Under the pieces are notes generated by a model. It saw nothing but the letters and a program-made list of their open reading frames with translations. It did not search any database and had not been told where the DNA came from. This document shows, piece by piece, positions 16,879-53,502 of a stretch of 64,000 nucleotides of DNA. This DNA is from Candidatus Poribacteria bacterium. GTDB lineage: Bacteria > Poribacteria > WGA-4E > WGA-3G. How positions within the stretch are numbered: position 1 is the first letter of the stretch; each line of letters opens with the position of its first letter. The stretch is taken from assembly GCA_965242965.1 (NCBI GenBank), contig OZ251518.1, positions 2,400,001-2,464,000 of the forward strand, in the 5' to 3' direction. Both the position numbers and the translations under genes were made by a program.

Positions 16879-17331
16879 ATGACTTTTGACTATCGATTCC
16901 GCCTGCGCGGATGTGGCGTGACGTTTGTCTGCATGCTTATCATGCCGGCGTTACTCCTCGGATGCAGAGCGAAGACTAGCATACCGGAAAGTGCGGAGAT
17001 GTTAACGCTGTCTGCCACCATCACTGAAATCGATGACCACGGTAACGCTGTCACCGACATACTCAGCGAGGCGTTTACCGAACGCGGGTGGCATCTCGGC
17101 GATACGCTGGAGGCAACGTTTGCAACCGCTCAGCCAATCCAATTCCAATTCGTTGAAGACTACGGTGATGTCCCGGTTGGCGAATATCTGGGCCGCTTTT
17201 CTACGTCCACGGGCCGGTTTAAGATTGCGATTAACCACGGGAGTATCGCTGAAACGTTGCAGTTAAAAAGCGCGAGTCAAGTGACGCTTCGGAAAGTAGA
17301 GCTGGCGGTTCCGGTAAAGGACGTGCCATAA
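16879..17331 (+). CDS. lipoprotein with SAM hydroxide adenosyltransferase (fluorinase/chlorinase family) C-terminal domain only
   Basis: Lipobox LLGC; IDDHGNAVTDI, YGDVPVGE, IAINHGSIAETLQL. Confidence 0.6.
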   Translation: MTFDYRFRLRGCGVTFVCMLIMPALLLGCRAKTSIPESAEMLTLSATITEIDDHGNAVTDILSEAFTERGWHLGDTLEATFATAQPIQFQFVEDYGDVPVGEYLGRFSTSTGRFKIAINHGSIAETLQLKSASQVTLRKVELAVPVKDVP

Positions 17332-18938: not shown

Positions 18939-18942
18939 AGTG

Positions 18943-24291: not shown

Positions 24292-24388
24292 ACTTAACTG
24301 TGGCGGAGCCCTTGACGATGCACGGGTGGCAGGAGCACGCGGTAAAATCAATACGCATCCTTTTTGTAGATATAGGAGGATTTCCTCA

Positions 24389-24994: not shown

Positions 24995-25009
24995 ACCGGA
25001 GATGAACAG

Positions 25010-25615
25010 ATGGCATACAGCAACTTCACCCTAGATTCGGTGGAAGCAGCGTTTCAGTTAGAAGTCGTTGAACGCGCGGGTATCTTTTCTGGGATAGAAC
25101 CGGTGGCACCGAGCCTCTATCTATCAACAGGCTTAGCCAAAAAGGTTGCACTGGCCACCGCGATAGGCACTGAGAAAGCGCGTTCGGAACTCATTGTTGC
25201 CGACATTCTCGTTGAACTGCGGGAACATTTCGAGTTTCGCATTAGCTTTTTTTCGGGGATTGACTTCAACGTTGATGCAGAAAACGAACTCACCGGTGTC
25301 TGCGATTTCTTAGTGAGTCTATCCCCTAGACAATCGCTTTTAAAGGCACCTATCATCGCGCTGGTGGAAGCAAAGAACGTTGACGTGAAACAAGGACGAG
25401 GACAGTGTGTGGCGGAGATGATTGCCGCCCAACGCTTTAACGCCGACAAAGGCAATGACATCCCCCGCATTTACGGTGCATCGACTACGGGAACGGAGTG
25501 GCAGTTCCTGAAATTAGAGGAGAAGTGCCTGCACCTAGATATGGATACCTACCCTATCCAGCGGTGCGATGCAATCCTCGGCATCCTCGCCAGTATGGTG
25601 GAACAAAAAGCATGA
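25010..25615 (+). CDS. PD-(D/E)xK-like protein, paralog 2 (201 aa)
   Basis: GVCDFLVS...LVEAKN. Confidence 0.75.
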   Translation: MAYSNFTLDSVEAAFQLEVVERAGIFSGIEPVAPSLYLSTGLAKKVALATAIGTEKARSELIVADILVELREHFEFRISFFSGIDFNVDAENELTGVCDFLVSLSPRQSLLKAPIIALVEAKNVDVKQGRGQCVAEMIAAQRFNADKGNDIPRIYGASTTGTEWQFLKLEEKCLHLDMDTYPIQRCDAILGILASMVEQKA

Positions 25616-25630
25616 ACGGGAGATAAGCCG

Positions 25631-26236
25631 ATGGAGTCCAGCAACTTCACCCTAGAAATAGCGCGGAAGAGGTTTCAACTTGAAGAAACTCAATCTATCG
25701 GCATCTTCGCCGACATAGAGCCGGTGACACCGCGTGCGCACTTTATCACCGAGTTCGCGGATAGAGTGTCAATCGCCGCCGCTATAAACACCGAGAAGGC
25801 AAAATCGGAACTCCTTGTCGCCGAAGTGCTGTTTGAGCTCCGCGCGCACTGCACCCGGCAGATAAGTTTTTTTTCGGGGATTGACTTCAACGTGAATGCC
25901 GATGATGAACTCACGGGTGTATGCGACTTTCTCGTGAGTCTGTCGCCAAATCAATTTGATTTAGAAGCACCTGTCATCATTCTCGTAGAGGCAAAGCGGG
26001 ATGCACCGGCATTCGGCTTGGGGCAGTGTGTGGCGGAGATGATTGCCGCTCAACGCTTTAATACCGACAAAGGCAATGACATCCCCCGCATTTACGGTGT
26101 CTCCACCACCGGCACCGAGTGGCTATTCCTCAAATTAGAGGAACGGCACCTGCAAATTGATCGGGATATCTACCACATCAAGCAGTGCGGCGCAATCCTC
26201 GGCATCCTCGCCTGCATGGTGGAACAAAAAGCGTGA
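25631..26236 (+). CDS. PD-(D/E)xK-like protein, paralog 3 (201 aa)
   Basis: GVCDFLVS...LVEAKR. Confidence 0.75.
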   Translation: MESSNFTLEIARKRFQLEETQSIGIFADIEPVTPRAHFITEFADRVSIAAAINTEKAKSELLVAEVLFELRAHCTRQISFFSGIDFNVNADDELTGVCDFLVSLSPNQFDLEAPVIILVEAKRDAPAFGLGQCVAEMIAAQRFNTDKGNDIPRIYGVSTTGTEWLFLKLEERHLQIDRDIYHIKQCGAILGILACMVEQKA

Positions 26237-26270
26237 CTCAAATGCCCCTGGAACAGTGAGGTGATTTCAG

Positions 26271-26876
26271 ATGGCGTATAGCAACTTTACGTTAGATTCG
26301 GCAGTGAAAGCGTTTGATTTAGAAATCGTTGAATCCGCCGCTCTTTTCTCTCCAATAGAGCCGATAGTCCCGCGGCCCCATTTCATAACCGATTTGGCGA
26401 AAAAGGCGAAGGTCGCGGCCGCTATCGGCACCGAAAAGGCGAAGTCCGAACTCATCGTCGCCAGCGTGCTGTTTGAACTCCTTGAGAACACTGATTTCGG
26501 CATCAGCCTGTTTTCAGGCATTGAATTCAACGTTGATAACGAAAAGGGGTTGAACGGGGTGTGTGATTTCTTAGTCAGTTTGTCACCGGTGCAATATCTC
26601 TTACAGACACCTGTTATTGTCCTCGTTGCAGCGAAAAAAGATAACGTGAGAGAGGGCCTCGGGCAGTGTATCGCCGAAATGGTGGCCGCCCAACGCTTTA
26701 ACTCGGAAATGGAAAATGACATCGCCCGCGTTTATGGTGCATCTACGACAGGGAGGGATTGGCAATTCCTTACATTAGCGGAAAGGCAGCTGCACTTGGA
26801 TAGGGAGATTTACCACATCCAGCAGTGCGACAAAATCCTCGGCATTCTCACCAGCATGGTGGCGCAAAATGCGTGA
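26271..26876 (+). CDS. PD-(D/E)xK-like protein, paralog 4 (201 aa; ExK changed to AxK)
   Basis: GVCDFLVS...LVAAKK. Confidence 0.75.
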   Translation: MAYSNFTLDSAVKAFDLEIVESAALFSPIEPIVPRPHFITDLAKKAKVAAAIGTEKAKSELIVASVLFELLENTDFGISLFSGIEFNVDNEKGLNGVCDFLVSLSPVQYLLQTPVIVLVAAKKDNVREGLGQCIAEMVAAQRFNSEMENDIARVYGASTTGRDWQFLTLAERQLHLDREIYHIQQCDKILGILTSMVAQNA

Positions 26877-39372: not shown

Positions 39373-39955
39373 CGCGAAGCGAACAAATCCCATAATTCCG
39401 GCATCCGTTTTCGGATTTCACGTGCAAGCCGGTGGCGGTGCTGCGGATTCAGCCGGCTTTCCGCTTCAACTTGCGGATATCTTCGGCCCCATTTTGGGAG
39501 TGCTGCTGCCGACGCTTATCCTCGTTACCGTTGCGATAGTCGTCTATGGCCGGATTCGGCGCAGCAACCCAAAACCGGAAACGCCGCGTCCTGCGGCGCG
39601 CGCACCTCAACCCCGGCGGGGAGATACGCCCGAGGCGCGAGCATTGGAGGCGTTGGATTTTGCCCTTTACAACCGCGCCGAGCCCACAATTCGCGAATAC
39701 TACGCCAGCATCGCGTGTCTGATCCTGCAGTATCTCAGCGATAAATACCAGATTAAGGTGCATGAAGCGACAACGACGCAGATTCTCGCCGATGTCGCCG
39801 ATGCGCTGCCGGCGAACCAGATCGACTATGTCGGCGAAATTCTCCACACGTGTGATATGGTGCAGTTTACCCCGCATCATCCGACGCGTTCGGAACAAGA
39901 CGACATTTATGAAACGGCGCGGGATTTTCTGGAGGGGCAGGCGAAGGGTTTATAG
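39353..39955 (+). CDS. hypothetical single-TM protein
   Basis: TM segment then a helical domain with YLSDKY..TT.QI and DMVQF. Confidence 0.6.
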   Translation: MDSATISAKRTNPIIPASVFGFHVQAGGGAADSAGFPLQLADIFGPILGVLLPTLILVTVAIVVYGRIRRSNPKPETPRPAARAPQPRRGDTPEARALEALDFALYNRAEPTIREYYASIACLILQYLSDKYQIKVHEATTTQILADVADALPANQIDYVGEILHTCDMVQFTPHHPTRSEQDDIYETARDFLEGQAKGL

Positions 39956-40020
39956 CCACACTTCGCGGGAAGCACGTTCAGTTAACTTGACAAGCATTTT
40001 TGAAATATGTTATCATAATT

Positions 40021-40286
40021 GAGGAGGTTTCATAAATCGCTCAACGTCGCGGTGATATGCCCCGCGCTACGGTAAAAAAACGCCGCCCCTTCACGTAGGG
40101 CGAGGGTCTGTCCCTCGCCATGCGTTTTGGTGTCAGACCGCCTCACGCCTGTAGTTCAGGATCGCCTGATCCTGACCCGTTCGAGATCGGGCGATCTCGA
40201 ACTACAGAGGTGGGCCCGATGCCTGCCGGTATTCGCCCTCCCTCCAAGGCGGGATAACTACCGAAACGGAGTTATGAAACACCCTC
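40021..40286. mobile_element. MITE-like element with REP mosaic
   Basis: TIRs GAGGAGGTTTCATAA / TTATGAAACACCCTC; flanks TCATAATT / GTATAATT; directly after TTGACA(39987)-N18-TATCAT. Confidence 0.75.
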
Positions 40287-40331
40287 GTATAATTAGCGTA
40301 GTTTCTAACGCGTGCGGTGTCAATCCACATA

Positions 40332-40400
40332 ATGGAATTTGAATGGGAGAAAAACAGAGCGGCAGTGTATCGAGAAGGCGGTGACATCAATGCAGGATGA
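40332..40400 (+). pseudogene. internally deleted BrnT-family toxin
   Basis: Translates MEFEWEKNRAAVYREGGDINAG*: a BrnT-like N-terminus joined directly to a C-terminal stub overlapping the antitoxin start. Confidence 0.6.
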
Positions 40401-40611
40401 ACTTCGGCCTGAGTATGATTTGAAAAACATGCAGGTTAGGAAGGTAGGACCCGGGCGAAAGTATTTCGCAGGGAACCCCGTCATCTACCTAGAACCCGAT
40501 GTTGCGGCGGTATTTCCAGACGCTGCGGCTGTGAACGAGGCACTGCGGTTTCTGATGCGCGTCAGCAAGGAAAATCAGGCAGGATTGCCTCGCGTGAGTA
40601 GCGATGCCTGA
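40390..40611 (+). CDS. BrnA-like antitoxin
   Basis: DELRPEYDL...IYLEPDVAAVFPDAAAVNEALRFL. Confidence 0.65.
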   Translation: MQDELRPEYDLKNMQVRKVGPGRKYFAGNPVIYLEPDVAAVFPDAAAVNEALRFLMRVSKENQAGLPRVSSDA

Positions 40612-40626
40612 ATCGTAACATTCTTC

Positions 40627-40665
40627 TTGACATTTTGATGCAAGCATGTTATCATTAAAATGTCA
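40627..40665 (+). promoter_or_regulatory. promoter with overlapping inverted repeat (candidate operator)
   Basis: TTGACA-N17-TATCAT; TGACATTTT (40628-36) / AAAATGTCA (40657-65). Confidence 0.6.
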
Positions 40666-40677
40666 CTAGAGAACTCC

Positions 40678-40781
40678 GTTCACATGGAGTCAGGGTGAAA
40701 GTTTAGAGGAGCTCTCATAGTCCAAACGGATAGAGCAAATTAAGGCACGCGCGCAGAAGGCATCTGATTTGTCATAAGTGA
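40678..40781 (+). pseudogene. remnant of the 3' end of the PAPS-reductase-family gene
   Basis: 40678-40710 is identical to 48406-48438; 40763-40781 is identical to 48580-48598; in-frame TAG and internal deletion. Confidence 0.85.
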
Positions 40782-40791
40782 AGGTGTTTAC

Positions 40792-41415
40792 GTGAAAATA
40801 GCTGAGTTTCAAGGAAGCGAAATAGTGGAGGTCCCGAAACACTCCGGTATTTACGCGTGGTATTATCGCCCACAAGCATCTGGAAACAACGTCTCTGGCA
40901 TCCTAGGACAGTTGATAAAGACTCCCTTTCGCGTGAAGACCGAAATTGCTATGCGATATCGGGTAATCTGGACAGCGGAGTCCGAAGCCGAGGTTCTCCA
41001 CGGTGCCGAACTCCACCCTGCAGACCAGGTTGTGGCAAAGATAGTTACCGATGGCGGCGAACTCATCAAATCCTTGCTTCAACAGGCGATGGTGCCTTAC
41101 TTTGCAACACCTCTCTATATCGGAATTTCCCGAGACTTATCTCGGCGGGTGAAGGAACACTACGATTCCTTGACGCAGCTCTGGGAAACAGATGCACCCG
41201 TAAGCAATTATCTTGAACAGAATCCCGATGCAGCGGTCGAAGAGGTTCTGAATCAGTTTGATTTAAACCATTCATTTCCGCTCAACGCAAGAGTCAAAGG
41301 AATAGCCCCGAGCGATCTGGTAGTCTGTGTTTTTCCTGTTGAGGATCAGGAAAAACTGCGAGACTTAGAACAAATTCTTCAGATTCTCGCCGATCCAATT
41401 TGTGGTAGGAGATAA
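40792..41415 (+). CDS. GIY-YIG-like nuclease
   Basis: PKHSGIYAWY ... LYIGISRDLSRRVKEH ... LE. Confidence 0.75.
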   Translation: MKIAEFQGSEIVEVPKHSGIYAWYYRPQASGNNVSGILGQLIKTPFRVKTEIAMRYRVIWTAESEAEVLHGAELHPADQVVAKIVTDGGELIKSLLQQAMVPYFATPLYIGISRDLSRRVKEHYDSLTQLWETDAPVSNYLEQNPDAAVEEVLNQFDLNHSFPLNARVKGIAPSDLVVCVFPVEDQEKLRDLEQILQILADPICGRR

Positions 41416-41419
41416 GCCG

Positions 41420-43717
41420 ATGTCAACCATGTTCAGTGTCGCCAAAAACCCCATTTTCGGATCTTTTGGGGAATTTACAATTGGTGACAACTCAAATACC
41501 CTTCGGGCCAGATACCTTCTCACGAAAATCAGGCCGGGGAACGATGGCACTTGGGAATGCGAGTTGGCATCCCAAATGAAGCCATGGCGCGAAGTCTTCA
41601 ATCTTGAACAGTTGAGTTCCGATGAACTTTTACAACGAGAACTGGACGATTCGCGCGTAGCGCATGACCTCATCCCCTATCTGCTCGGTGAATCCGGAGA
41701 TAGAGCAAAGTTCTTTCCGCCGATTCTCGCCGTAATCGTCCCGCGTAAGCAGGGTGGCTCTGGAATTGAAGGGTTTTATCCGGCTCGGGAGGCTCAAGGC
41801 GCATCGGTTGAGCATTACGGCAATCTGTTTGATTTTGAGCGAATTGAATGGGGAGGTGAACTTACCCCACTCGCGCGTCTCAACTATAATCGGCAACGCG
41901 CCGCGTTCATTATTGTTGACGGCCAACATCGCGCTATGGCTGTGCTCGCTCTGCACAGGCAGTTGAACCAGAACTGGGGAGATAACGCCTTCGCCGCTTA
42001 CTACGAACACATCAAGGTGACACCCGAACAAGTCAAAAGCATTGAATTGCCGACGTGTATCATCTATTTCCCAGAGCTACATGATGGGAATCCGCTGCCG
42101 CGACAACAAGGTATCAATTTAAACTCCGTTTGTCGGGAGGTATTCCTAGTCGTCAACCGAAGTGCCAAACGTGTGAGCGCGGTGCGCGAGTGCTTGCTAG
42201 ACGACGAGGATATCGCCGCACGCCTGATGCGCCGAACCCTCTCAACGCTGAAAAACCGCGGCGAAGAACAGGGTGACTTAGCCCGAATTTATTCAATTTC
42301 TTATGGCGATTCAGACACCGAAACCGGAGAAAAAGAGGTAGCCTCCCGGCGACTTGAATATAGCAGTGCCATTGCGATACATAAGAGCCACAGCGCGATC
42401 GCTTTCGGTGTTAACGAAGGGTTTAAGTTAAAAAATCCTCAGGACATTTCGGAACGGTGTAAAACCAAAAACATCAATCGTCCATCCGAAATCCTACTGG
42501 GAACGAGTGTGGAAGATTACCGAATCCTCGCGCGCAATTCAGGGAAAACACTCCCAACCGCCGAAGTCGACGTAGTCGTCGAAAAACTGGGGAACTTGGC
42601 AGACGCTGCTTTGGTGCGACTTTTCGACCAATTTCGTCCGTTTCAGGTTCATAATGCCGAACTCCGAAAATTGAGACTGCGGCTTTCAGATGTTCATCCT
42701 GATGCTCAGAGCGAACAGAAGAAAGCGTATACGCTGATTTTCGAGGGAAGCGAGGAGCGGAACGTCTTTGACTCACATTTCAGGCGGCTGAGTTATGAAT
42801 GTGAGCGCGAGGGGCAAACAGTCCCACCGCACCTCCTGAATCAGATAGATTTCTGCAAGTCTGTTAAGCAGGCACTCGGCGAGCACGAACGCGAATTCCA
42901 ACGCCGCCGCGCATGCAAATTCTTCGGAATAAACCGCGCCCTATTTGATAGTGACGATCATCGGGAAGACCGCGCATTTCTGAGTAACAAGGCACGAAAA
43001 CTCTTCCTAACCGTGTCAACCCAAGCGTTTCAGTTGGGCTATGCCATGGCGATTTTCACCGTCGTTGAAGAGTTGAAACGCGGGAGACCGGATGCCTCCC
43101 CTTTGCTGTATCACGACAGGCTGAAACTTGTCGAATTCGTGACAGAGGCATATCTCGCTGCGCTCAACACTTACTTTTCCCCCAAGGACGATACGGTTCA
43201 TCAGGGGCTTGCTGGCTACATCTGCGAGCCGCGGGCATCGGTTTTTGATGCAAATTCTCCGGGGCTTCGCGGGCTCTTGGCGATGAGCGTCAATGAACTG
43301 AACGAACGCCAATGGCGATTTTTCCGCTACGCCATTTTAGAGATTGTCCACTCGCCGTTCTGCTGGCATGCTGCTCAGAAAAAAATGAAGCAGATGGACT
43401 GCGAATGGGCACTAACGTGGTATAAAGAATCCATCCCCAAATTGGTGGAGGGTATTCTGTCCGAACGTGCAAAGTATGTTGAGGATGCGCTGGAAGCGGG
43501 CATCAAAAGTCGCGATTTTGAACTGCTGAAAATGCGCACGGAATCTGAAGCGAGAGATGTCGGCAAAAGCGAAGAACGCATCCGGCAACTTGTTGAAAAA
43601 CTTCAGCATTCCCATCGGACCACAGCAAAGCAAAACGCGCTTGACCACCTCAAGGCAAGTTTAGAAACCGTTGAATCCAAATCGGAGATGATCCGACGTT
43701 TACGCGATAACTTTTAG
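41420..43717 (+). CDS. large DGQHR-domain (DndB/ParB-like) protein
   Basis: LLQRELDDSRV, FFPPIL, IVDGQHR, EVFLVVNRSAK. Confidence 0.8.
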   Translation: MSTMFSVAKNPIFGSFGEFTIGDNSNTLRARYLLTKIRPGNDGTWECELASQMKPWREVFNLEQLSSDELLQRELDDSRVAHDLIPYLLGESGDRAKFFPPILAVIVPRKQGGSGIEGFYPAREAQGASVEHYGNLFDFERIEWGGELTPLARLNYNRQRAAFIIVDGQHRAMAVLALHRQLNQNWGDNAFAAYYEHIKVTPEQVKSIELPTCIIYFPELHDGNPLPRQQGINLNSVCREVFLVVNRSAKRVSAVRECLLDDEDIAARLMRRTLSTLKNRGEEQGDLARIYSISYGDSDTETGEKEVASRRLEYSSAIAIHKSHSAIAFGVNEGFKLKNPQDISERCKTKNINRPSEILLGTSVEDYRILARNSGKTLPTAEVDVVVEKLGNLADAALVRLFDQFRPFQVHNAELRKLRLRLSDVHPDAQSEQKKAYTLIFEGSEERNVFDSHFRRLSYECEREGQTVPPHLLNQIDFCKSVKQALGEHEREFQRRRACKFFGINRALFDSDDHREDRAFLSNKARKLFLTVSTQAFQLGYAMAIFTVVEELKRGRPDASPLLYHDRLKLVEFVTEAYLAALNTYFSPKDDTVHQGLAGYICEPRASVFDANSPGLRGLLAMSVNELNERQWRFFRYAILEIVHSPFCWHAAQKKMKQMDCEWALTWYKESIPKLVEGILSERAKYVEDALEAGIKSRDFELLKMRTESEARDVGKSEERIRQLVEKLQHSHRTTAKQNALDHLKASLETVESKSEMIRRLRDNF

Positions 43718-43787
43718 ATGCCTGTCTTCGCGCAGCTCCTATAACTTGACAAGCACTTTTGAAAATGGCAATTTTACTGGAAGTATC

Positions 43788-46700
43788 ATGAACAACATAT
43801 CTTTGTCCGACATTTTTAGCGTTAACAGGCGTTTTCAGCGTTCGGTTCATCTGGAACGCGATTTCTATACCGAAAATGCCCTAGACGGTTACATCATAAC
43901 AAACACCGTTCGCGATACATTATCACGCGTCATTTACGCGCTTGAGCAGCGCGCAACATCAAAAGCGTGGTCTCTCACTGGCCCCTATGGTTCTGGGAAA
44001 TCCGCGTTCGCGCTTTTCACTACGAAGTTGCTCGGTGATTCTGCTGCACCGACAACCCAACAGGCTTCGCAACTGCTCAAACAAGCGGACGCAGCATTAT
44101 ACCAGCAATTCATTAAAGCAAAAGGAAAAGGTCGGTTGTCTCCCGGTTTCTGTCCTATCCTCATAACGGGAGAACGTGCCCCCATTACGCTTGCTCTCCT
44201 GCGCGGTTTGGAACAGGGACTTACTTCTTTCAATCGAACGCTGTTCTCCGATTTGCTTCTTCAGGATGTCAAAAACCTGCTGCAAACAGCAGACAAAGGC
44301 TCTCTTCCGCGCGCTTCTGAGATTACAGCCCTTTTTGAAACGGCGACACGGCAAATCTGTGCAGATGGAGGTTCAGGGATATTGCTGGTAATTGATGAAC
44401 TTGGGAAGTTCATTGAATATGCGGTGCAGCACCCGGATCGCGGAGACGCATTTGTCCTCCAAAGTCTCGCCGAATTTGCCTCGCGCAGCGGAAAAACCCC
44501 GCTGTTGCTATTGACAATTCTCCATCAGGCTTTTGAACAGTATGCACAGCGGGCCGCGAAATCCCAACGCGAAGAATGGGCAAAAGTGCAAGGACGGTTT
44601 GAGGATGCCATCTTTGCGGATTCCACCGAGCAGGTCCTCCGGCTCATCGGCGAAGCATTAACAACCCGTTCGGAACTCGTTCCAAAAACCAACTTCGCGA
44701 TTGCGGTTGACTTGGAACTCAAACCGCGGCAACTTGACGAGCACGAATTTATTCAACTGCTGGAAAGGTGTCTCCCCCTTCACCCGACAGTGGCACTCCT
44801 AATCGGTTCCCTTTTCCGGCGGTTTGCACAGAATGAACGTTCCTTATTCGCGTTCCTCGGTTCAAATGAACCCCACGGGCTCCAAGATTTTCTTTTGAAC
44901 CAATTTTACGATGGACGCGCGCTGCCGCTGTTTTCATTGGCGAATCTGTATGACTACATCAATACCGCGCTAGGAAATCGGCTGTATGAGTCGCGCGATA
45001 GCAAGAAATGGTCAGAAATTGAATCGGCAATTCAGCGTCTGCCAGATCCGTCTCCGATGACAGTCAGCCTGATTAAGACTATCGGTTTGCTCAATGCTGT
45101 GGGAGAGGTGAGCCGGAATCTGAAAGCCTCAGATCAGGTGCTCCGTTATGCGTTAGACGATGGCACGGCAGAATTCGCCGAGGAATTTACAGATGCGCTG
45201 GAGACGTTAGAAAAACGGTCTATTGTCACCTACCGCCGTTACAACGATGCGTATGCTCTCTGGGAAGGGAGCGACATTGACATTGAGACTAAACTCCGCG
45301 AAGCGTCAAAACATGTCAATCCGAATCTGCGAGTGGCAAAAGACCTGGAGAGACTTCTTCCCCAGCGGCCGCTTATCGCCAAACGGCACCTATTTCAGAC
45401 TGGCACCACGCGCTACTTCAACGTTCAGTATTCAGAACTTGAAACCTTTGAGGCGGATTTGCGCGCACCACTCGATGATGCAGATGGCCTTGTCCTCTAC
45501 GCATTGCCCGAAGATGAACTTGAAGTGGCGCAGCTCGTCGAAAAGGCATCCGCGGCGGAAGCCGCAAACCGAAAAGAGGTCTTGGTTGCCATTCCGCGCT
45601 CCATCGGTTTTTTGCGGGATGCTGTCCTTGAGTTGGCCCACCTGCGCTGGATCGCAGAAAACACCCCAAAGTTGAAAGGCGATGCAACCGCAAGACATGA
45701 ACTCTTATCGCGGTTAACCGTAGCGGAACATGATGTGGCTTCGCGCTTGGAGGCAATCTTTGGCGAGCACAGCGAGAAGACTTGCATCTGGTACCACAAG
45801 GGACGACCGGTGCAGATTGACTCGCAACGCGCGAGAAACGCCTATCTGTCAACTATCTGCGATGAGGTTTACGACGAAACTCCTATCCTGCAGAACGAAC
45901 TGATCAATCGGCATAAAATATCTGGTTCAGTGACAACCGCCAGACGAAAACTGATTCAGGCGATGCTTGAAAATGGAGGCGAGGAGAAACTCGGCATCAC
46001 CCGCTATCCACCAGAAATAACGATTTACGTTTCCATGTTGTCAACTACAAGTATTCACCGTCCAGTTTCGGGAGTGTGGGGATTTCACCCACCTGAACCT
46101 TCCGATAAAAACAGAATGGGCCCCACGTGGAAAGCGATTGAAACGTTCCTTGGCGAATGTGAAGTCGCGCGACAACCTGTCGTGAAACTCTACGAACGCT
46201 TGTCCGCACCACCACTAGGCGTGCGAAGCGGGCCGCTACCTATTCTGTTATGCGCCGCGATGCTCCACTACAAAACAGAAATCGCGCTCTACGAAGACGG
46301 TTCCTTTGTCGCCGACGTTTCAATGCCGGTTTTTGAACGCCTGATTAAGGCACCGGAGAAATTTGAATTAAAGCGGTTTCGGTTGGCAGGAGTCAGGACA
46401 GACGTGCTTTCGCAATTGGGGGGAGTGCTCAAACAACCAGCAGCGGCAGACACGCCAGACCTGCTAACGATAGTGACACCCCTTATGCGTTTCATTGCTG
46501 AACTCCCAAAGTATACGTTGTTAACGCAAACGTTGAGTGAGGAAGCGAAAAATCTCCGCAAAACCGTACTGGATGCACGCGAACCCGACATGCTCATCTT
46601 TGAGCAGCTCCCCGAAGCCATGGGGTGCCCTCCTTTTCGCATTGACGCAACATCCGATGCAAACGCCATTGATACCTTCTTCAAAAAGCTGCAAGACGCA

Positions 46701-47282
46701 TTGGCAGAAATAGGCGGGGCTTACGATATCCTGCTGAACTCCATTGAGCAACTCCTCGTCTCGGCGTTTGCTTTAAAACAGACGAACGAGGAACTTCGCA
46801 GGGAGTTGGCTGACAGAGCTGAATCCCTGTTGGCAGTAACGGTTGAGACGCGGCTCAAGGGATTCTTAATTCGCGCCTGCGACCTCGGTTTGGATTTCAC
46901 CGGCTGGCTTGAGGCGATCGCCACCTTCCTCGCCAACAAACCGCCGAGTTCGTGGAACGACACGGACAAGGCTCAATTTGAGGTGAACCTCTCCGAATTG
47001 GCGCGGAAGTTCCATCATTTTGAAGCGGTGTCTTACGAAAATCGCTCCCACGTCGAACAACCGTCGGCCGGTGAGTCCATTCGGATTGGCATCACCAGAG
47101 CGAATCAACGCGAGCAAGAACGGGTTGTCGCTTTGCCATCACCAACCGAGGAACAGGCTGCCAAACTTGAGCACGCGATTGAGGAGGTTTTTGAGAAATT
47201 CGGGATCGCTGAAAACACCGAACATTGCCTCGCTGTCATCGCGCGATTATCAGAAAAATTGATGCAACAACTAGAAAATTGA
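43788..47282 (+). CDS. large P-loop ATPase, SspC/BrxC-like
   Basis: RFQRSVHLERD, Walker A GPYGSGKS, Walker B LLVIDELGKFIEY, EWAKVQGRF, PLHP, QNERSLFAFL. Confidence 0.75.
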   Translation: MNNISLSDIFSVNRRFQRSVHLERDFYTENALDGYIITNTVRDTLSRVIYALEQRATSKAWSLTGPYGSGKSAFALFTTKLLGDSAAPTTQQASQLLKQADAALYQQFIKAKGKGRLSPGFCPILITGERAPITLALLRGLEQGLTSFNRTLFSDLLLQDVKNLLQTADKGSLPRASEITALFETATRQICADGGSGILLVIDELGKFIEYAVQHPDRGDAFVLQSLAEFASRSGKTPLLLLTILHQAFEQYAQRAAKSQREEWAKVQGRFEDAIFADSTEQVLRLIGEALTTRSELVPKTNFAIAVDLELKPRQLDEHEFIQLLERCLPLHPTVALLIGSLFRRFAQNERSLFAFLGSNEPHGLQDFLLNQFYDGRALPLFSLANLYDYINTALGNRLYESRDSKKWSEIESAIQRLPDPSPMTVSLIKTIGLLNAVGEVSRNLKASDQVLRYALDDGTAEFAEEFTDALETLEKRSIVTYRRYNDAYALWEGSDIDIETKLREASKHVNPNLRVAKDLERLLPQRPLIAKRHLFQTGTTRYFNVQYSELETFEADLRAPLDDADGLVLYALPEDELEVAQLVEKASAAEAANRKEVLVAIPRSIGFLRDAVLELAHLRWIAENTPKLKGDATARHELLSRLTVAEHDVASRLEAIFGEHSEKTCIWYHKGRPVQIDSQRARNAYLSTICDEVYDETPILQNELINRHKISGSVTTARRKLIQAMLENGGEEKLGITRYPPEITIYVSMLSTTSIHRPVSGVWGFHPPEPSDKNRMGPTWKAIETFLGECEVARQPVVKLYERLSAPPLGVRSGPLPILLCAAMLHYKTEIALYEDGSFVADVSMPVFERLIKAPEKFELKRFRLAGVRTDVLSQLGGVLKQPAAADTPDLLTIVTPLMRFIAELPKYTLLTQTLSEEAKNLRKTVLDAREPDMLIFEQLPEAMGCPPFRIDATSDANAIDTFFKKLQDALAEIGGAYDILLNSIEQLLVSAFALKQTNEELRRELADRAESLLAVTVETRLKGFLIRACDLGLDFTGWLEAIATFLANKPPSSWNDTDKAQFEVNLSELARKFHHFEAVSYENRSHVEQPSAGESIRIGITRANQREQERVVALPSPTEEQAAKLEHAIEEVFEKFGIAENTEHCLAVIARLSEKLMQQLEN

Positions 47283-47464
47283 CATGACTAGATCGTAGGA
47301 AGGGAGTTCGTGTGGTTAATCTGGCAAGGGGTTTCCTTGTCGCAGATAGGAAACCTCTTCCGGTCCGTAAGTCCTAAAGAGATGTTTTCCCACAATGCGC
47401 CGTTTCCGATGCTTTCTGAAATGTTGCAAAAACCGTGGAATCTGACATCACAACAAATTTTAAT

Positions 47465-47559
47465 TTGACATTTTGCTGAAAATGTAGTATAATTAAAATA
47501 GCAATAAAATCTATAGCAAACGTTTTTTGTTTGCAAATTTTGGATTTTTATGGTATACT
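47465..47559 (+). promoter_or_regulatory. two tandem sigma70 promoters upstream of the PAPS reductase-like gene
   Basis: TTGACA-N17-TATAAT (47465-47493) and TTGCAA-N17-TATACT (47531-47559). Confidence 0.7.
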
Positions 47560-47779
47560 ATACGAAACGTTGTTAATTGCGTTGGTTCGTGAACGGCTGC
47601 AGCATTGAGGCAGCACTCGGATTCATCGCAGCGAATGAAGTCGCGCGGCGGTTTTGAGAAATTACGCACAATTTTCATTCGCGTTAAAACACGTAGTTCA
47701 AAGGTGGAGGCAGTCAATTTGCAGATTCGGCACTGCAACTCCGTAAAGCCTATTTTATAGTAGCCAACAGGAGCAAAGC

Positions 47780-48598
47780 ATGGAAGAAAAAATACGCCAT
47801 CTCCTCGGCCTCTCCGGAGGCAAAGACAGTTCAGCGCTCGCCGTTTATATGCGAGACCGCGTGCCGCAGATGGAATACTTTTTCTGCGACACCGGGAAGG
47901 AACTGCCAGAGACTTACGAGTTTCTGGATCGGTTAGAGGCATTCCTCGGCAAACCGATCGCGCGCCTCAATGTAGAACGTGACTTCGATCATTGGCTCAC
48001 GCTCTACGGCGGCCTGCTGCCATCGTCGCAAGTTCGGTGGTGCACCTATAACCTCAAGATTAAGCCGTTTGAGGAATACGTAGGCGAGGACAAAGCGTAT
48101 CACTACATCGCGATTCGCGCCGACGAAGATCGCGTTGGCTATAAACCGCCGAAAACAACCGCGCTCCGAAGCATCGAACCCAAGTATCCTTTCAAGGATG
48201 ATGGCATCACCAAAGAGGATGTCTTCCGCATCTTGGAGGAAAACGGGATCGGTTTACCCGCCTATTACGATTGGCGGACGCGCTCCGGGTGCTACTTCTG
48301 CTTTTTCCAACGCAAAGCAGAATGGGTGGGGCTATTGGAAAAGCATCCTGACCTTTTTGAACTCGCCAAGGGTTATGAAAAATTCGACCCGGATACGGGC
48401 GAACGGTTCACATGGAGTCAGGGTGAAAGTTTAGAGGAACTCTCGGAACCTGAACGGATAGAGCAGATTAAGGCACGCGCGGAGAAGGCTACTGCCGCTA
48501 AGAAAACGGCGCGTCCCAATCGCCGCCTCATCGATATCCTCACCGATGTCCATGATGATGAGGATGACGATGAGCCTTGTCTGATTTGTCATAAGTGA
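47780..48598 (+). CDS. PAPS reductase family protein, SspD/DndC-like
   Basis: PP-loop SGGKDS, DTGKE, RWCT..LKI.PF, IRADE, RSGCYFCFFQ, C-terminal CLICHK. Confidence 0.85.
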   Translation: MEEKIRHLLGLSGGKDSSALAVYMRDRVPQMEYFFCDTGKELPETYEFLDRLEAFLGKPIARLNVERDFDHWLTLYGGLLPSSQVRWCTYNLKIKPFEEYVGEDKAYHYIAIRADEDRVGYKPPKTTALRSIEPKYPFKDDGITKEDVFRILEENGIGLPAYYDWRTRSGCYFCFFQRKAEWVGLLEKHPDLFELAKGYEKFDPDTGERFTWSQGESLEELSEPERIEQIKARAEKATAAKKTARPNRRLIDILTDVHDDEDDDEPCLICHK

Positions 48599-48614
48599 GA
48601 CTTAGAGGTTCCTA

Positions 48615-49499
48615 ATGGATCGGGAAACACTTCTCGAAAAATTCACAAATCTCCGGCAATGGAACAGGGGTGCGGAGAGAGCACCGCATAAACCCTTGCT
48701 AATCATATACGCCATCGGCAAATTGCTGCGAGGTGAGGGCCGACTGACTCCATTTGCCGAAGCAGACGTGGACGTTGGAAAATTATTGCGGGAGTTCGGC
48801 GGGCGACAATCAAAACAGGGAACCCAGTATCCTTTTTGGCGGTTGCGCAACGATAGCATCTGGGAAGTAACCGATGCAGCCCTGATGTCCCCCAACTCCA
48901 GTGGGGACGTGAGAAAAAGCGAACTCCTCAATCTTAACGTTGCTGGTGGTTTTCACGAAGCCATTGCTGAACAACTCCAAAATGACACAAGTCTAGCTTT
49001 TGAAATAATTCATAAGCTGTTAGACATGCATTTTTGTGATGGAATGCATAGTGACATTTTGCAAGCCGCTGGCATTGAACTGCCCATCAAGGTTTTTGAA
49101 ACCAAGATGCGAACATCCAACTTCCGAGAAAAAGTCCTGAGAGCCTACGAATACAGATGTGCTGTCTGCGGTTTCGATGTGAAATTAGGAATACTTCCTC
49201 TCGCGTTGGAGGCCGCTCATATCAAATGGCAAGCGTTCGGCGGTCCTAATGAAGAGGTGAATGGACTGGCTCTTTGCGTCCTGCATCATAAGTTATTTGA
49301 CCGTGGGGCTTACACTTTGTCGCCCCAATGGGAAGTCCTGATATCAGATGATGCACACGGGTCTGTTGGTTTTGAGGAATGGCTGATGCGGTTCCACGGT
49401 AAACCAATTAACTTTCCGCAACGGCAGTCCTACTATCCGGGTGCAGATTTCATCAGTTGGCACGTCAACGAGGTGTTCCAAGGGGATTACCGGGAATAA
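48615..49499 (+). CDS. SBD-HNH endonuclease (phosphorothioated-DNA-binding restriction endonuclease type)
   Basis: N-terminal APHKPLL and QYPFWRL sulfur-binding-domain motifs; C-terminal CAVCG, EAAHIK, NGLALCVLHHKLFDRG. Confidence 0.8.
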   Translation: MDRETLLEKFTNLRQWNRGAERAPHKPLLIIYAIGKLLRGEGRLTPFAEADVDVGKLLREFGGRQSKQGTQYPFWRLRNDSIWEVTDAALMSPNSSGDVRKSELLNLNVAGGFHEAIAEQLQNDTSLAFEIIHKLLDMHFCDGMHSDILQAAGIELPIKVFETKMRTSNFREKVLRAYEYRCAVCGFDVKLGILPLALEAAHIKWQAFGGPNEEVNGLALCVLHHKLFDRGAYTLSPQWEVLISDDAHGSVGFEEWLMRFHGKPINFPQRQSYYPGADFISWHVNEVFQGDYRE

Positions 49500-49549
49500 T
49501 CCACTGAGCACACTTCATCCACAGTCAAAGTGTGTTAAGGATAAAAATC

Positions 49550-50521
49550 ATGGCAAATGTTCAGACTTACTTCAACAAGTTTCATGATACCATCAGAAGA
49601 AGCTATAACGACAATAGCATTCTGAGGGATAAGAGGGATCTGCTTTTACGGGATCTACAAGAAGGGCTGCGGAGGTACGCCTTGGCCTCTGGCATCAAAA
49701 TCCCGAGATACGAGCACTTCAATCAGGGCAGTTACGCGATGGATACCGGGATTGAACCGCTCTCCGGCGAGGATTATGATATTGATGTCGGCTTGACTTT
49801 TCATATATCAGCGTCGACCTATTCCCCCGTTGAGGTCAAGCAGTGGGTTTACGAAGCCTTGAACTCCGGGAACAGAACGGTGGAGTACAAACGTCCTTGC
49901 GTGAGGGTCCAATATCATCGGAAAGGGGAGGAAATCTACCACGTTGATTTTGCTGTCTATTCCGGAAAGGCCTATAATTGGGACAATCAGACCTATCTAG
50001 CAAAAGGCTTTTTGGGATCTGCCCCCGAAAACCAGGTCTGGGAAATTTCAGAACCGCATGGACTACTGGAAGCATTTCAGCAGAAATTTCCGAACGAAGG
50101 AGATCGAAATCAGTTTCGGCGAGTTATCCGATTCCTGAAGCGGTGGAAAGACGTGAATTTCACTGCGGAAGGAAACGCGCGTCCCACCGGGATTGCGCTG
50201 ACAGCGTGCGCCATGAATTGGTTTCAGCGTGGACTGGTTTATCGGGCTGCTGTTGGCACCAATTATGATGACTTAACAGCACTCAGGAACCTTGCTGAGT
50301 CAATCCTAAGTCAGTTTGATTTTGGGAATCGGATAAGTGTCAGACTACCTGTTCCACCACACAATGATCTGTTTGAGAAATTGAGCAACAAACAGATGGC
50401 AAACCTTGAAAGCAAACTTGCGGTACTCGTGACTTCCTTAACTCGGGCGCAAGAAGAATCTTCCTATGTTTCAGCATGCCGCATTCTACATCGCCTTTTC
50501 GGAGATGACTTTCTACCGTGA
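49550..50521 (+). CDS. cGAS/DncV-like nucleotidyltransferase (CD-NTase/SMODS) 1
   Basis: QGSYAMDT, DYDIDVG, KRPCVRV, HVDFAVY, IRFLKRWK, FGDDF. Confidence 0.85.
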   Translation: MANVQTYFNKFHDTIRRSYNDNSILRDKRDLLLRDLQEGLRRYALASGIKIPRYEHFNQGSYAMDTGIEPLSGEDYDIDVGLTFHISASTYSPVEVKQWVYEALNSGNRTVEYKRPCVRVQYHRKGEEIYHVDFAVYSGKAYNWDNQTYLAKGFLGSAPENQVWEISEPHGLLEAFQQKFPNEGDRNQFRRVIRFLKRWKDVNFTAEGNARPTGIALTACAMNWFQRGLVYRAAVGTNYDDLTALRNLAESILSQFDFGNRISVRLPVPPHNDLFEKLSNKQMANLESKLAVLVTSLTRAQEESSYVSACRILHRLFGDDFLP

Positions 50522-50605
50522 TAACCGGAACCAGCCGAATTTGGACAAGACTCGCGTAGTTTTTATAACGCTATGTTTTTCCATAACTAGAGAAGGTTAG
50601 TCAAA

Positions 50606-51553
50606 ATGGATGAGAAAATCAAAAGAATTCTGACAATTGATGGAGGAGGAATTAAAGGGGTATTCCCATCTTCCTTCCTTGCTACTGTTGAAGATTCAAT
50701 CAAAGACAACGTAGCAAACTATTTTGACTTAATCGTCGGTACCTCGACCGGTGGCATCATAGCTCTGGGCCTTGGGCTTGGATTATCAGCGCAGGAGATT
50801 TTGACGTTTTATGAAGAATCCGGACCTCGGATTTTTGGTGGGAATCGTCTTGGACGGTGGTTGAGAGGGCTTGGCATGTCAAAGTACAATAGCGACCCTC
50901 TTGAGGAAGCACTAAAGGAGTGCTTTGGGGAAAAGAAACTGGGCGATAGCAAAAAACGCCTAGTCATCCCATCAATGAACCTTGAAAATGGCGAGGTCTA
51001 CATCTACAAGACAGCCCATCATCCTCGATTGGAAAGAGATTTCAAGCAAAAGGTTGTTGATGTGGCCCTCGCAACCGCTGCCGCTCCAACTTATTTTCGC
51101 GCACATAGGTCGGATGGAGGAACCCCTCTAATTGATGGGGGTGTATGGGCGAATAACCCCGTGGGACTATCCGTAGTTGAAGCAATTGCGTTGCTTGACT
51201 GGCCAAGGGATTCTTTAAAAATCTTGAGTTTGGGTTGCACTCATGAACCATTAAACGTGAATTGGGGCAGAAAATTCTCACTAGGACGTTTATATTGGGC
51301 ACTAAAATTGTGCGACGTGTGTATGCATGCACAATCCCACGGATCCCTCGGAACAGCGCAACTTCTTGCGGGACATGATAACGTCATCAGGATTAACCCA
51401 TCCATGGCCAGCGGAAAGTTTGGTTTAGATAAAGCCAAGGAAATTTGCTCGCTCAAAGGTCTCGGAGTAGACCAAGCCCGAAAAGCGTTGCCTCAACTCC
51501 GCAAGGTTTTTATCAGCAATCCAGTAGAAGCATTTGAGGCTTTCCACAGATAA
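50606..51553 (+). CDS. capV: patatin-like phospholipase, CBASS effector
   Basis: DGGGIKG, GTSTGG, AAPTYF, IDGGVWANNP; flanked by CD-NTases. Confidence 0.85.
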   Translation: MDEKIKRILTIDGGGIKGVFPSSFLATVEDSIKDNVANYFDLIVGTSTGGIIALGLGLGLSAQEILTFYEESGPRIFGGNRLGRWLRGLGMSKYNSDPLEEALKECFGEKKLGDSKKRLVIPSMNLENGEVYIYKTAHHPRLERDFKQKVVDVALATAAAPTYFRAHRSDGGTPLIDGGVWANNPVGLSVVEAIALLDWPRDSLKILSLGCTHEPLNVNWGRKFSLGRLYWALKLCDVCMHAQSHGSLGTAQLLAGHDNVIRINPSMASGKFGLDKAKEICSLKGLGVDQARKALPQLRKVFISNPVEAFEAFHR

Positions 51554-51569
51554 ACGAAGGTGAAAAAAT

Positions 51570-52640
51570 ATGTTTACTTACTCAAACCAATTCAGTAGGT
51601 CTCTCGATCAGGTCATATCCCAATCGTTGGACATATCTGATGAGCACCACCAACTGGCGGTAGAACGCTATAAATCCATAGGTAACTGGCTAGAACGGAG
51701 AGGGTCTAGAGTCGCTCACTACCGTCCCGAAATCTATCCACAAGGCTCTTTTCTGCTGGGTACAGTTACGCGCCCTGTTTCCAACGCCGAAGAGTACGAT
51801 ATCGACCTCGTGAGCGAACTGAATCTTGAAAAATTCCGAATCAGCCAAGAAGGACTCAAGAACTTAGTCGGGGACGAAATCACGGCCTATGCCCGCACTC
51901 ACTATCTGGATCTGCCAAAGAATGGAAGGCGTTGCTGGACGCTGAATTATCCAGGCAATGCCCGATTCCACATGGACATCTTACCAGCGATTCCAGATGG
52001 AGAATCGTTCAAACAGACTCTCCTGTCAAACGCAGGATCGTTCCCGAATTTCTCTATTGCAATTGGCTTGTCAAGTTTTGCAATTGCAATTACTGACAGA
52101 GATCATTGCAATTACAATAGGATTGATCGGAATTGGCCTCGCAGTAATCCGAAGGGGTATGCAGCATGGTTCATGAACAGGGGACTCAACCGAGACCTGA
52201 CTGATACTCGGGCTGTTGAGGATGTCCCGGATCACAGCGTCAAAACACCCCTCCAGCGGACAGTTCAGATACTGAAGCGTCACCGCGACATCTGGTTTGA
52301 CAAGATGGTGAGGCAGCGCCGCTACAGACGAGACGATAAACCAATCTCTATCATCATTACGACGCTTGCGGCTCACGCCTACGAAGGCGAAAAAGACCTG
52401 CAAGAATCCCTCCAGAATATTGTAAGGAAGATGCCGAGCTCTATTGAGTGGCGATACGGTGGAGTCGCCTACGTACGCAATCCGGTGGATCCGTTGGAGA
52501 ACTTCGCTGACAAATGGCAGGAGCATCCTAGCCGAAAGGTTTGCTTCATGGACTGGCTTCAGCAGGTATCCGGGAAAATGAACGATTACCTGGCAAGGCG
52601 CGATATTTCGGCAATGAAGGCGTTACTACGGTTGCGCTAA
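51570..52640 (+). CDS. cGAS/DncV-like nucleotidyltransferase (CD-NTase) 2
   Basis: YPQGSFLLGT, EYDIDLV, RRCWTLNY, FHMDILPA, SNPKGY, LKRHRD, PISIIITTLAA, NPVDPLENFADKW. Confidence 0.85.
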   Translation: MFTYSNQFSRSLDQVISQSLDISDEHHQLAVERYKSIGNWLERRGSRVAHYRPEIYPQGSFLLGTVTRPVSNAEEYDIDLVSELNLEKFRISQEGLKNLVGDEITAYARTHYLDLPKNGRRCWTLNYPGNARFHMDILPAIPDGESFKQTLLSNAGSFPNFSIAIGLSSFAIAITDRDHCNYNRIDRNWPRSNPKGYAAWFMNRGLNRDLTDTRAVEDVPDHSVKTPLQRTVQILKRHRDIWFDKMVRQRRYRRDDKPISIIITTLAAHAYEGEKDLQESLQNIVRKMPSSIEWRYGGVAYVRNPVDPLENFADKWQEHPSRKVCFMDWLQQVSGKMNDYLARRDISAMKALLRLR

Positions 52641-52716
52641 GACAAAGGAGAGGTTGGAGAGGTGAGTAAGATAGAATCTCTTCGGGTCCTATGCACGTTA
52701 CCGAAGTGAAGCCCCC

Positions 52717-53502
52717 TCACTCCCCCAAAAGCCGCAACTTATTTTCATAAACCTGCCGATAATAATCCGCACGCTTCAGTTCCGATGCCGCCGCCTCGTC
52801 TAGCACGACGACGGTGCGGGGATGCATCTGCAATACGGAAGCTGGCACCTCTGCCGTAATCGGCCCCTCCACTGCCGCCGCAATCGCTGCCGCTTTCGAT
52901 GCGCCGTTCGCTAACAGCAGGCACTCCCGCGCCTCCATGATAGTGCCGACACCCATCGTAATCGCCAGCGTCGGCACTGCATCGATATCCCCCCCGAAAT
53001 GTGGCGCGTTCGCCGCTAAGGTGCTTCGCGTCAACGTCTTAATCCGAGTGCGAGAACCGAGTGAGGAACTGGGCTCGTTGAACCCAATATGTCCCTCTCT
53101 GCCGATGCCGAGGATCTGGATATCGATGCCGCCGGCGCGCGCAATCGCGGCTTCATAACGTTCACAAAACGCCCCGTGGTCTTCCGCAGTATTCTGCGGG
53201 AGATAGCGGTTCTCCTCCGGGATGTTGACATGCCGGAAAAAATGCGCCTCCATGAAGGTATGATAACTGGCCGGATGCGTCTTCGGTATGCCGACATACT
53301 CGTCGAGGTTAAAGGTTGTCACGGCAGAGAAATCGAGTCCCTCTTCGGTGTGCATTCGGACGAGTTCCTCGTAAAGTCCGATGGGCGTGCTACCGGTGGC
53401 GAGTCCCATGACGAGTTCGGGTTTTTTGAGGAGCGCGCGCTTCACGATATCGGCGGCGATGGCGACGAGGTGTGGATACGTCGGTTGAATGATAATTTCC
53501 AT
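52717..53502 (-). CDS. nagB: glucosamine-6-phosphate deaminase
   Basis: GLATGSTP, TFNLDEY, GIGREGHIGFNEP, ITMGVGTI. Confidence 0.95.
   Translation of the reverse strand: MEIIIQPTYPHLVAIAADIVKRALLKKPELVMGLATGSTPIGLYEELVRMHTEEGLDFSAVTTFNLDEYVGIPKTHPASYHTFMEAHFFRHVNIPEENRYLPQNTAEDHGAFCERYEAAIARAGGIDIQILGIGREGHIGFNEPSSSLGSRTRIKTLTRSTLAANAPHFGGDIDAVPTLAITMGVGTIMEARECLLLANGASKAAAIAAAVEGPITAEVPASVLQMHPRTVVVLDEAAASELKRADYYRQVYENKLRLLGE

Follow-up and report, generated by a model that had tools for sequence, protein, structure and literature searches.

The stretch of DNA analysed here, referred to as the window, comprises 64,000 nucleotides (nt) of contig OZ251518.1 (positions 2,400,001 to 2,464,000) from a Candidatus Poribacteria bacterium, which is related to sponge symbionts. 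Within a chromosomal defence island at approximately 40.3-52.7 kb of the window lies a conserved operon of two genes, sspD and a gene for a nuclease that combines a sulfur-binding domain (SBD) with an HNH domain (Table 1). SspD is part of the enzyme set, here called the writer, of Ssp-type DNA phosphorothioate (PT) modification, and the second gene encodes a predicted reader of the same kind of modification. Characterised SBD-HNH enzymes cut PT-DNA, and the interest of the locus lies in the puzzling logic of such a nuclease beside a PT writer and in a natural series of reduced loci found in related genomes. An initial annotation had described an SspD/DndC-like gene followed after 16 nt by an SBD-like HNH gene; both open reading frames (ORFs) and the motifs were found as described, and family matches confirmed the gene identities. 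Published work is cited below by PMC number, for the statements contained in excerpts of the papers.

Table 1. Features of the defence island around the sspD-nuclease pair (coordinates in the window; aa, amino acids)
Feature	Coordinates	Strand	Description
207-aa ORF	40792..41415	+	14-nt overlap with the start of the DndB-like gene; weak GIY-YIG nuclease candidate
DGQHR/DndB-like protein	41402..43717	+	771 aa; occupies the place expected for sspB
sspC	43746..47282	+	ORC/Cdc6-type AAA+ ATPase of the Ssp writer; PADLOC SspC E = 0, 1112.5 bits
Promoter-like site, sigma-70 type	47465..47493	+	TTGACA, 17 nt, TATAAT; 12/12; inside the 497-nt sspC-sspD gap (47283-47779)
sspD	47780..48598	+	272 aa; PP-loop/PAPS-reductase-family sulfur-transfer enzyme of Ssp-type DNA phosphorothioation
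Spacer sspD/nuclease	48599..48614	+	16 nt; AGAGG Shine-Dalgarno-like motif, read directly
SBD-HNH nuclease	48615..49499	+	294 aa; predicted SprMcrA/EcoWI class
CBASS module	49532..52640	+	CD-NTase, patatin phospholipase, second CD-NTase

The product of sspD was matched by the PADLOC SspD model (E 3.7e-116, residues 6-272 on model positions 1-277 of 277) and by Pfam PAPS_reduct (1.6e-09), and its SGGKDS loop together with C88, C171, C174, C267 and C270 showed no variation across 33 aligned homologues. The nuclease consists of an N-terminal sulfur-binding winged-helix domain (residues ~1-115), a linker and a C-terminal HNH domain with a Cys/His zinc site (~166-240). The NCBIfam model NF045808 (PT-DNA_restrict, "phosphorothioated DNA-binding restriction endonuclease") aligned to residues 5-289 over model positions 2-284 of 284 with E 3.6e-94 and 315.1 bits against a cutoff of 180, and Pfam HNH_2 matched the C-terminal part (5.6e-10). 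For both genes the quality of the matches is far beyond chance. Residues 11-115 of the nuclease aligned to the SBDs of known structure from ScoMcrA (5ZMM; E 1e-10) and SprMcrA (7CC9; 1.6e-08), H25-K26 falling on the HR pair of ScoMcrA and Y72-P73 on the YP pair; HR/HK and YP are the named sulfur-recognition residues of SBDs (PMC7461809). The protein carries the motifs APHKPLL and QYPFWRL, and H25, K26, P27, P73 and F74 are invariant in 77 aligned nuclease homologues (37 near sspD, 40 not); Y72 is variable among them (Y, F, H, D, E, L) and is Y in the window. The same 77 homologues share C182, C185, H202, N216, C221 and H224 without exception, to which we presumptively assign the catalytic and zinc-binding roles of the HNH part. 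At no position of the alignment do the residues distinguish the 37 nucleases linked to sspD from the 40 others. Judged by its sequence, the nuclease is an ordinary member of the SprMcrA/EcoWI class, with the same two-domain architecture and length and with pocket, HNH and zinc residues intact, and it differs from that class in sharing an operon with a PT-writer gene. It adds a member to an established nuclease family, and no new mechanism is demonstrated by it. No terminator-like site was found on the + strand in the spacer between the two genes.

The SspC protein encoded ahead of the pair has both its Walker A (GPYGSGKS) and Walker B (LLVIDE) motifs. The Ssp writer is, however, incomplete in cis: sspC and sspD are present, and sspB (DUF4007) and a cysteine desulfurase are absent from the window. 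No tblastn match to four poribacterial SspB proteins was obtained in the 64-kb window at E values up to 0.01, PADLOC SspB matched none of the island proteins, and no cysteine desulfurase or SspA was found among window ORFs of at least 110 aa. The sspB gene may lie outside the 64-kb window, and the missing desulfurase weighs little because iscS elsewhere in the genome often supplies the activity (PMC12914056).

Homologues of the nuclease numbered 4,250 at E values up to 0.001. In a scan of species-representative genomes 565 relatives were confirmed, and the best 80 of the 565 were kept, giving 79 loci, most of them in metagenome-assembled genomes labelled Poribacteria, Latescibacterota, Caldilineaceae or Gemmatimonadetes. 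Linkage to sspD was scored by tblastn and an SspD profile, within 10 kb and on the same strand. The initial annotation had allowed that the adjacency might be unique, which it is not: sspD lies within 10 kb of the nuclease in 34 of the 79 loci, being directly upstream (at most 150 nt) in 18 and upstream but spaced in eight, while in a further eight the nuclease stands 295-460 nt upstream of sspB-sspC-sspD. The other 45 loci have no sspD within 10 kb; four of these have less than 1 kb of upstream sequence. Ssp neighbours were found in none of the three neighbourhoods (0/3) of plasmid-borne nuclease homologues (29-41% identical).

The nuclease tree comprised 78 rows; excluded were two ORFs of under 270 aa and four loci whose gene the ORF caller had missed. 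One clade (Shimodaira-Hasegawa-like approximate likelihood-ratio test 95; 45 rows, mostly Poribacteria) contains all 37 linked rows, the window included, and none of the 33 rows outside it is linked. Since all linked rows fall within one clade, the sspD-nuclease association is strong but phylogenetically concentrated. The same sspD-then-nuclease order occurs in a far more distant Ssp lineage (L001), whose SspC and SspD are 30% and 55% identical to those of the window. In the sspD tree the two main arrangements interleave, requiring at least six arrangement changes, and the lone sspD-nuclease pair occurs in three or more distinct chromosomal settings (L015/L052, L022, L053). A prediction of a complex between SspD and the nuclease from 33-row alignments scored 0.00 against a mark of 0.32 and counts neither way.

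For neighbour clusters that recur among the loci, representative proteins were compared with PADLOC and Pfam models. In the eight nuclease-sspB-sspC-sspD loci the ORFs are intact; they encode a complete DUF4007-type SspB (E 2e-87), whose gene overlaps sspC by 8 nt, and sspD follows sspC, mostly at 11-12 nt. The slot after sspD is held in these loci by PbeA (a phospholipase D-type nuclease with a superfamily 2 helicase; PADLOC 2e-202), by a GmrSD_N(DUF262)+HNH protein, or by a small ORF and then a DndB-like protein. With an apparently complete sspBCD beside the nuclease in all eight species, the host's own mark is presumably not cut there.

This coexistence bears on the statement of the initial annotation that SBD-HNH enzymes cannot normally coexist with a cognate PT system, a premise that is out of date. 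Nucleases with a winged helix-turn-helix (SBD), SAD and HNH domains are reported in the Dnd locus of 698 taxa, where they mostly come right after the modification genes (PMC10853773), the PT-writing bacteriophage exclusion (BREX) type 4 system of Bacteroides salyersiae has the gene order brxP-mcrA-brxC (PMC12914056), and the linked relatives counted above add the Ssp case. In B. salyersiae PT is made with mcrA present, and mcrA is dispensable for PT (PMC12914056).

The reading that we favour, with a probability of roughly 0.4, is that the nuclease is the modification-dependent (Type IV) arm of the Ssp island, cutting PT-DNA in contexts that the host does not write; it corresponds to the first of three options in the initial annotation, that the nuclease reads a PT context other than the one written by the host. 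The winged-helix SBD would dock on a PT linkage and the HNH domain would cut nearby. The target would be incoming DNA with PT in contexts or on strands not written by the host, for example double-stranded Dnd-type GpsN sites, and the nuclease would be blind to, or not licensed by, the single-strand Ssp mark of the host if the SBD or the dimer geometry required PT contexts that Ssp does not produce. In the window the Ssp mark is perhaps not made at all, because sspB is missing. With the host mark spared or unmade, there would be neither self-conflict nor inverted logic, and the nuclease would travel with the Ssp genes as a compatible module. The substrate context and the sparing of host DNA are proposed here, and we infer that sspD and the nuclease are linked because they are inherited together as compatible modules, not because they cooperate biochemically. 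A parallel is offered by the immigration control region of E. coli K-12, in which genes for modification-dependent nucleases (mrr and mcrBC) lie beside a system that writes a modification (hsdRMS) and are compatible with it through different target contexts; it differs in having separate transcription units and in concerning base methylation, not backbone sulfur.

The second option of the initial annotation was an inverted restriction-modification (R-M) logic, in which the writer would label the DNA of invaders for destruction by the SBD-HNH nuclease. The adjacency and the retention of a writer enzyme beside a PT-dependent nuclease are all that speaks for it, and we regard it as scarcely credible. 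No component to aim the writer at foreign DNA is evident, the promoter-like site ahead of sspD gives no hint of induction, and Ssp writers mark the host chromosome (PMC9646914, PMC8092258). Moreover, the eight relatives described above keep the nuclease beside a complete sspBCD and classical effectors, an arrangement that fits poorly with a writer labelling DNA as a target of this nuclease.

In the 18 sspD-then-nuclease loci, the remaining writer genes are decayed or scattered, and 7 of these loci have an sspC of full length. The sspB gene is intact in five but 6-7 kb off behind unrelated genes; in two (L048, L068) a shared 3'-end frameshift leaves its final 51 codons in the wrong reading frame, in two (L003, L005) it lacks the first 46 codons and has stops or a frameshift, in two a remnant of at most 23 aa is left, in six it is absent within 10 kb, and in one (L050) it could not be assessed owing to a short flank. 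Thus an unlesioned sspB adjoins sspC in none of the 17 assessable sspD-then-nuclease loci, versus an intact sspB in 8/8 nuclease-sspBCD loci. Selection was estimated as Nei-Gojobori ratios of nonsynonymous to synonymous substitution rates (dN/dS, omega), which are approximate because dS is near saturation in several comparisons. The ratio was 0.05-0.07 for sspD in every group, 0.09-0.19 for the nuclease and 0.12 for sspC in loci without a sound sspB; in five species with a shared loss of sspC it was 0.14 for sspB and 0.08-0.23 for flanking housekeeping genes. After the decay of sspB, omega for sspC and sspD was 0.15 and 0.06 between L003 and L005 and 0.13 and 0.08 between L048 and L068. The retained sspC and sspD are therefore under purifying selection in the relatives.

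These reduced loci raise the question of a variant writer, in which the SBD-HNH protein replaces the DNA-binding/nicking function of SspB and sspC-sspD-nuclease or sspD-nuclease is a self-sufficient writer/reader cassette, or in which SspD and the SBD-HNH protein otherwise act on the same PT site. An autonomous pair would explain how the pair survived repeated loss of sspB and sspC, and the 0/17 versus 8/8 distribution of a sound adjacent sspB, the purifying selection on sspC and sspD after sspB decay and the recurrence of the lone pair in several chromosomal contexts would all agree with it, as would the equation of the SBD with the winged helix (PMC10853773). Both forms of the proposal nonetheless seem to us quite improbable. 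No fusion of sspD (PAPS reductase) with SBD-HNH was seen among 13 longer relatives, which is weak evidence, the sspB and sspC genes may sit elsewhere in those genomes, five loci keep a remote sspB under selection (omega 0.14), arguing continued need, and the sspD genes of both arrangements interleave in the tree. BREX type 4, moreover, retains the DUF4007 domain, found in 97% of taxa and often fused to PAPS reductase (PMC12839542). BREX type 4, with BrxP and BrxC as a supposedly sufficient set for PT, had been considered as a precedent for an SspB-less writer and was dropped, since BrxP commonly has a fused DUF4007 (PMC12839542).

It could also be supposed that the Ssp cluster is decaying, that its writer is dead and that the nuclease is a stand-alone Type IV enzyme with a leftover neighbour. 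Such a relic would fit the absence of sspB and cysteine desulfurase from the window, the sspB pseudogenes, sspC fragments and rearrangements in related loci, and the GC content of the island, which lies below that of the flanks (0.47-0.50 versus ~0.55). We nevertheless judge it unlikely: sspC and sspD are full length with motifs intact, the low dN/dS of sspD in relatives extends even to the five-species group with the shared sspC loss, a perfect promoter-like site stands ahead of sspD, and the desulfurase often comes from iscS elsewhere (PMC12914056). Accordingly, of the third option in the initial annotation, an inactive writer, the lack of sspB/DUF4007 and of a desulfurase in the window speaks in its favour, whereas the kept motifs of sspC and sspD and the purifying selection in relatives do not.

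A Type IV architecture occurs in close relatives of the nuclease. Seven of the 13 longer relatives are RE_AspBHI_N + SBD + HNH fusions (P0121-P0127, Caldilineaceae-type, 604-624 aa) that are 57-59% identical over the whole query; one was confirmed by a Pfam scan and six were taken from precomputed labels. The AspBHI_N domain reads 5-methylcytosine. The fusion parallels the SBD-SRA-HNH arrangement of ScoMcrA and is typical of modification-dependent enzymes. EcoWI-class SBD-HNH enzymes restrict dnd+ plasmids (PMC7461809), and affinity for the Ssp context C*CA differs among SBDs (PMC11349849).

In SspBCD-SspE systems sspE follows sspD, and the window resembles them in that its sspC and sspD are clear orthologues and a PT-reader with an HNH domain follows sspD, although sspB (DUF4007) and sspA are absent from the window. 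The nuclease could be the restriction partner of the Ssp writer, a PT-sensing effector analogous to SspE whose SBD would read the host Ssp mark as a licence or platform while the HNH domain nicks unmodified invader DNA; SspE itself senses CpsCA and then nicks (PMC9646914). In keeping with such a role, the nuclease stands directly after sspD, in the slot held in relatives by PbeA, by the SspE-like DUF262(GmrSD_N)+HNH protein or by the small-ORF/DndB-like pairs, the linkage recurs in the 34 relatives, and the four operons with a lesioned sspB contain no other effector. In addition, 83.9% of 2,678 sspBCD clusters lack sspE and sspFGH, so that other partners are expected (PMC8092258), SBD-type HNH nucleases have been proposed as alternative Dnd restriction components, DndFGH being present in only 197 of the 698 taxa mentioned above (PMC10853773), and in B. 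salyersiae a deletion of brxP was unobtainable while mcrA could be deleted (PMC12914056). However, all characterised SBD-HNH enzymes cut PT-DNA in cis (PMC7461809), the unlinked relatives cannot be told apart by sequence, the loci with an intact writer also hold other effectors (PbeA, DUF262-HNH), and in the window, without sspB, there is perhaps no mark to sense. The nuclease also differs from SspE in lacking the DUF262 (DGQQR) NTPase and the DUF1524 HNH, and it has neither homology to SspE nor an SspE-like NTPase switch. On balance, we consider a PT-sensing partner somewhat unlikely.

The Type IV reading fits the biochemistry of the family, the unlinked relatives and those fused to a 5-methylcytosine reader, and the lack of a signature in linked copies; the 45 of 79 loci without sspD within 10 kb, the plasmid neighbourhoods without Ssp genes, the tandem diverged nuclease copies of three loci and the coexistence with apparently complete writers in eight likewise support it. 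Several observations weigh against it. The linkage is tighter than defence-island clustering predicts, sspD being directly upstream on the same strand in the 18 loci with gaps of -4 to ~75 nt, and a Type IV enzyme gives no account of why sspD in particular stays attached. The pair is kept in loci with a damaged or missing sspB and in loci with no sspC within 10 kb, and the dN/dS of sspD is low in every group. In the sspB(lesioned)-sspC-sspD-nuclease loci (L003, L005, L048, L068) the nuclease is the sole candidate effector within the operon, a position that suits a partner role. Furthermore, the linked copies all fall in one clade and represent few independent events, and substrate specificity is not readable from the nuclease sequence.

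The pairing of a writer with a PT-reader nuclease is known for Dnd and BREX type 4, and the Ssp version is new; no report describing an Ssp/SBD-HNH link was found in the literature searched, the original SspABCD-SspE paper (Xiong 2020) being outside that search. The window locus and its relatives therefore add an Ssp class to the writers with adjacent SBD/McrA-type nucleases. In an earlier survey, fewer than 3.6% of ~3,000 SBD-HNH homologues were near dnd genes and ~65 cases were left unresolved (PMC7461809). The nucleases of the Dnd locus are likewise SBD-type HNH enzymes directly downstream of PT-modification genes, but their writer is of the Dnd type (ABC ATPase and DndE) and they have an extra SRA domain, whereas the window has an Ssp writer and no SRA (PMC10853773). 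In BREX type 4 a PAPS-reductase gene is likewise followed by an mcrA-type gene near an SspC/BrxC ATPase (PMC12914056); PglZ, BrxL and the DUF4007 fusion of BrxP (PMC12839542) are all lacking in the window locus, and the McrA of B. salyersiae is likened to the window nuclease by gene order, not by sequence. The loci of sponge symbionts form a natural series, from intact sspBCD with the nuclease through sspC-sspD-nuclease to sspD-nuclease alone, which makes the relation of writer and nuclease testable with few constructs. Should the nuclease prove to be a partner of Ssp, some of the 83.9% of sspBCD clusters for which no restriction component is known (PMC8092258) would be explained; should it be no more than a compatible Type IV enzyme, the arrangement is an ordinary one for a defence island.

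Further features were observed around the nuclease in the relatives. Tandem diverged SBD-HNH copies occur in three loci (L003:9980-11999, L016:8733-10909, L065:6905-8916), those of L003 coming from different subclades. Next to aldo-keto reductase, mutY-like and FGE-sulfatase genes there is a poribacterial hotspot whose content varies between loci, being the nuclease alone, sspD-nuclease, sspC-sspD-nuclease or nuclease-sspBCD-PbeA (upstream flanks of L005, L011, L015, L026, L029, L031, L032, L039, L049 and L052), and a prokaryotic Argonaute (pAgo) and other defence genes lie downstream in some loci. HATPase_c-type proteins (570-598 aa, with a 162-aa partner) are encoded between sspD and the nuclease in L013, L014, L021 and L056, and others (727-790 aa) beside the nuclease or sspC in L002, L020 and L034.

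The island of the window is bordered by a sigma-54 regulator gene and nagB, in a chromosomal stretch that also has pyrC, carAB, holB, recJ and relA/spoT. The 771-aa protein encoded in the expected place of sspB matches Pfam DndB (2.1e-05; 24.2 bits versus 29.1) and TIGR03187 DGQHR (1e-07), both below cutoff. It was examined as a disguised SspB and ruled out, with an hhalign probability of 0.2% against an SspB alignment and no PADLOC SspB match. Relatives of this protein adjoin Ssp genes or SBD-HNH in L026, L042 and L078. The 207-aa ORF ahead of it matches Pfam GIY-YIG at E 0.044 only, and we take its GIY...YIG...R...EH-like motifs to be those of a GIY-YIG nuclease; a promoter-like site (40627-40655, 11/12) precedes it. 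A small ORF with a weak GIY-YIG match followed by a long DGQHR/DndB-like protein recurs beside Ssp or SBD-HNH genes in several relatives (L026:16552-19047, L042:1331-3812, L006/L010/L039; window 40792-43717), and the two may be a PT-associated effector pair in their own right.

The promoter-like site in the sspC-sspD gap suggests that sspD and the nuclease may form their own transcription unit. Across the region 11 promoter-like sites were found versus 11.1 expected, and weight is placed only on the perfect match and the position of this one. The perfect sigma-70 consensus stands ~285 nt before the start of sspD and would leave a long AT-rich leader. No Rfam match was found in this 285-nt leader, one chance-level match being obtained elsewhere in 39900-53000, and no conservation of the leader was detected in relatives apart from a single 39-nt blastn match. 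Of 18 sequences, 8 have promoter-like sites of at least 10/12 ahead of sspD, a count that carries little weight as there was no shuffle control.

The nuclease gene is followed at ~50 nt, with no terminator-like site between, by a module of the cyclic-oligonucleotide-based antiphage signalling system (CBASS), two cGAS/DncV-like nucleotidyltransferases (CD-NTases) flanking a patatin phospholipase (PADLOC cyclase 2.9e-107, phospholipase effector 5.3e-105, cyclase 6.2e-116). The patatin exceeds the NCBIfam CBASS_lipase cutoff (268.2 bits versus 200) and the first cyclase falls under the NCBIfam cGAS cutoff (135.6 versus 150). The module constitutes a defence system of its own, perhaps transcribed together with the pair.

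Elsewhere in the window, a Type II R-M pair, an N6_N4 DNA methylase gene and then one for a TdeIII-family endonuclease (E 2.3e-76), lies at 17331-19713, and four paralogous ORFs in tandem (267, 201, 201 and 201 aa), any two of which share 119-132 identical residues and none of which matches Pfam, lie at 24191-26876. At 2575-6378, a small ORF with no family match comes after each of two AAA_15/AAA_21 ATPase genes, and the set resembles two copies of a two-gene defence-type module.

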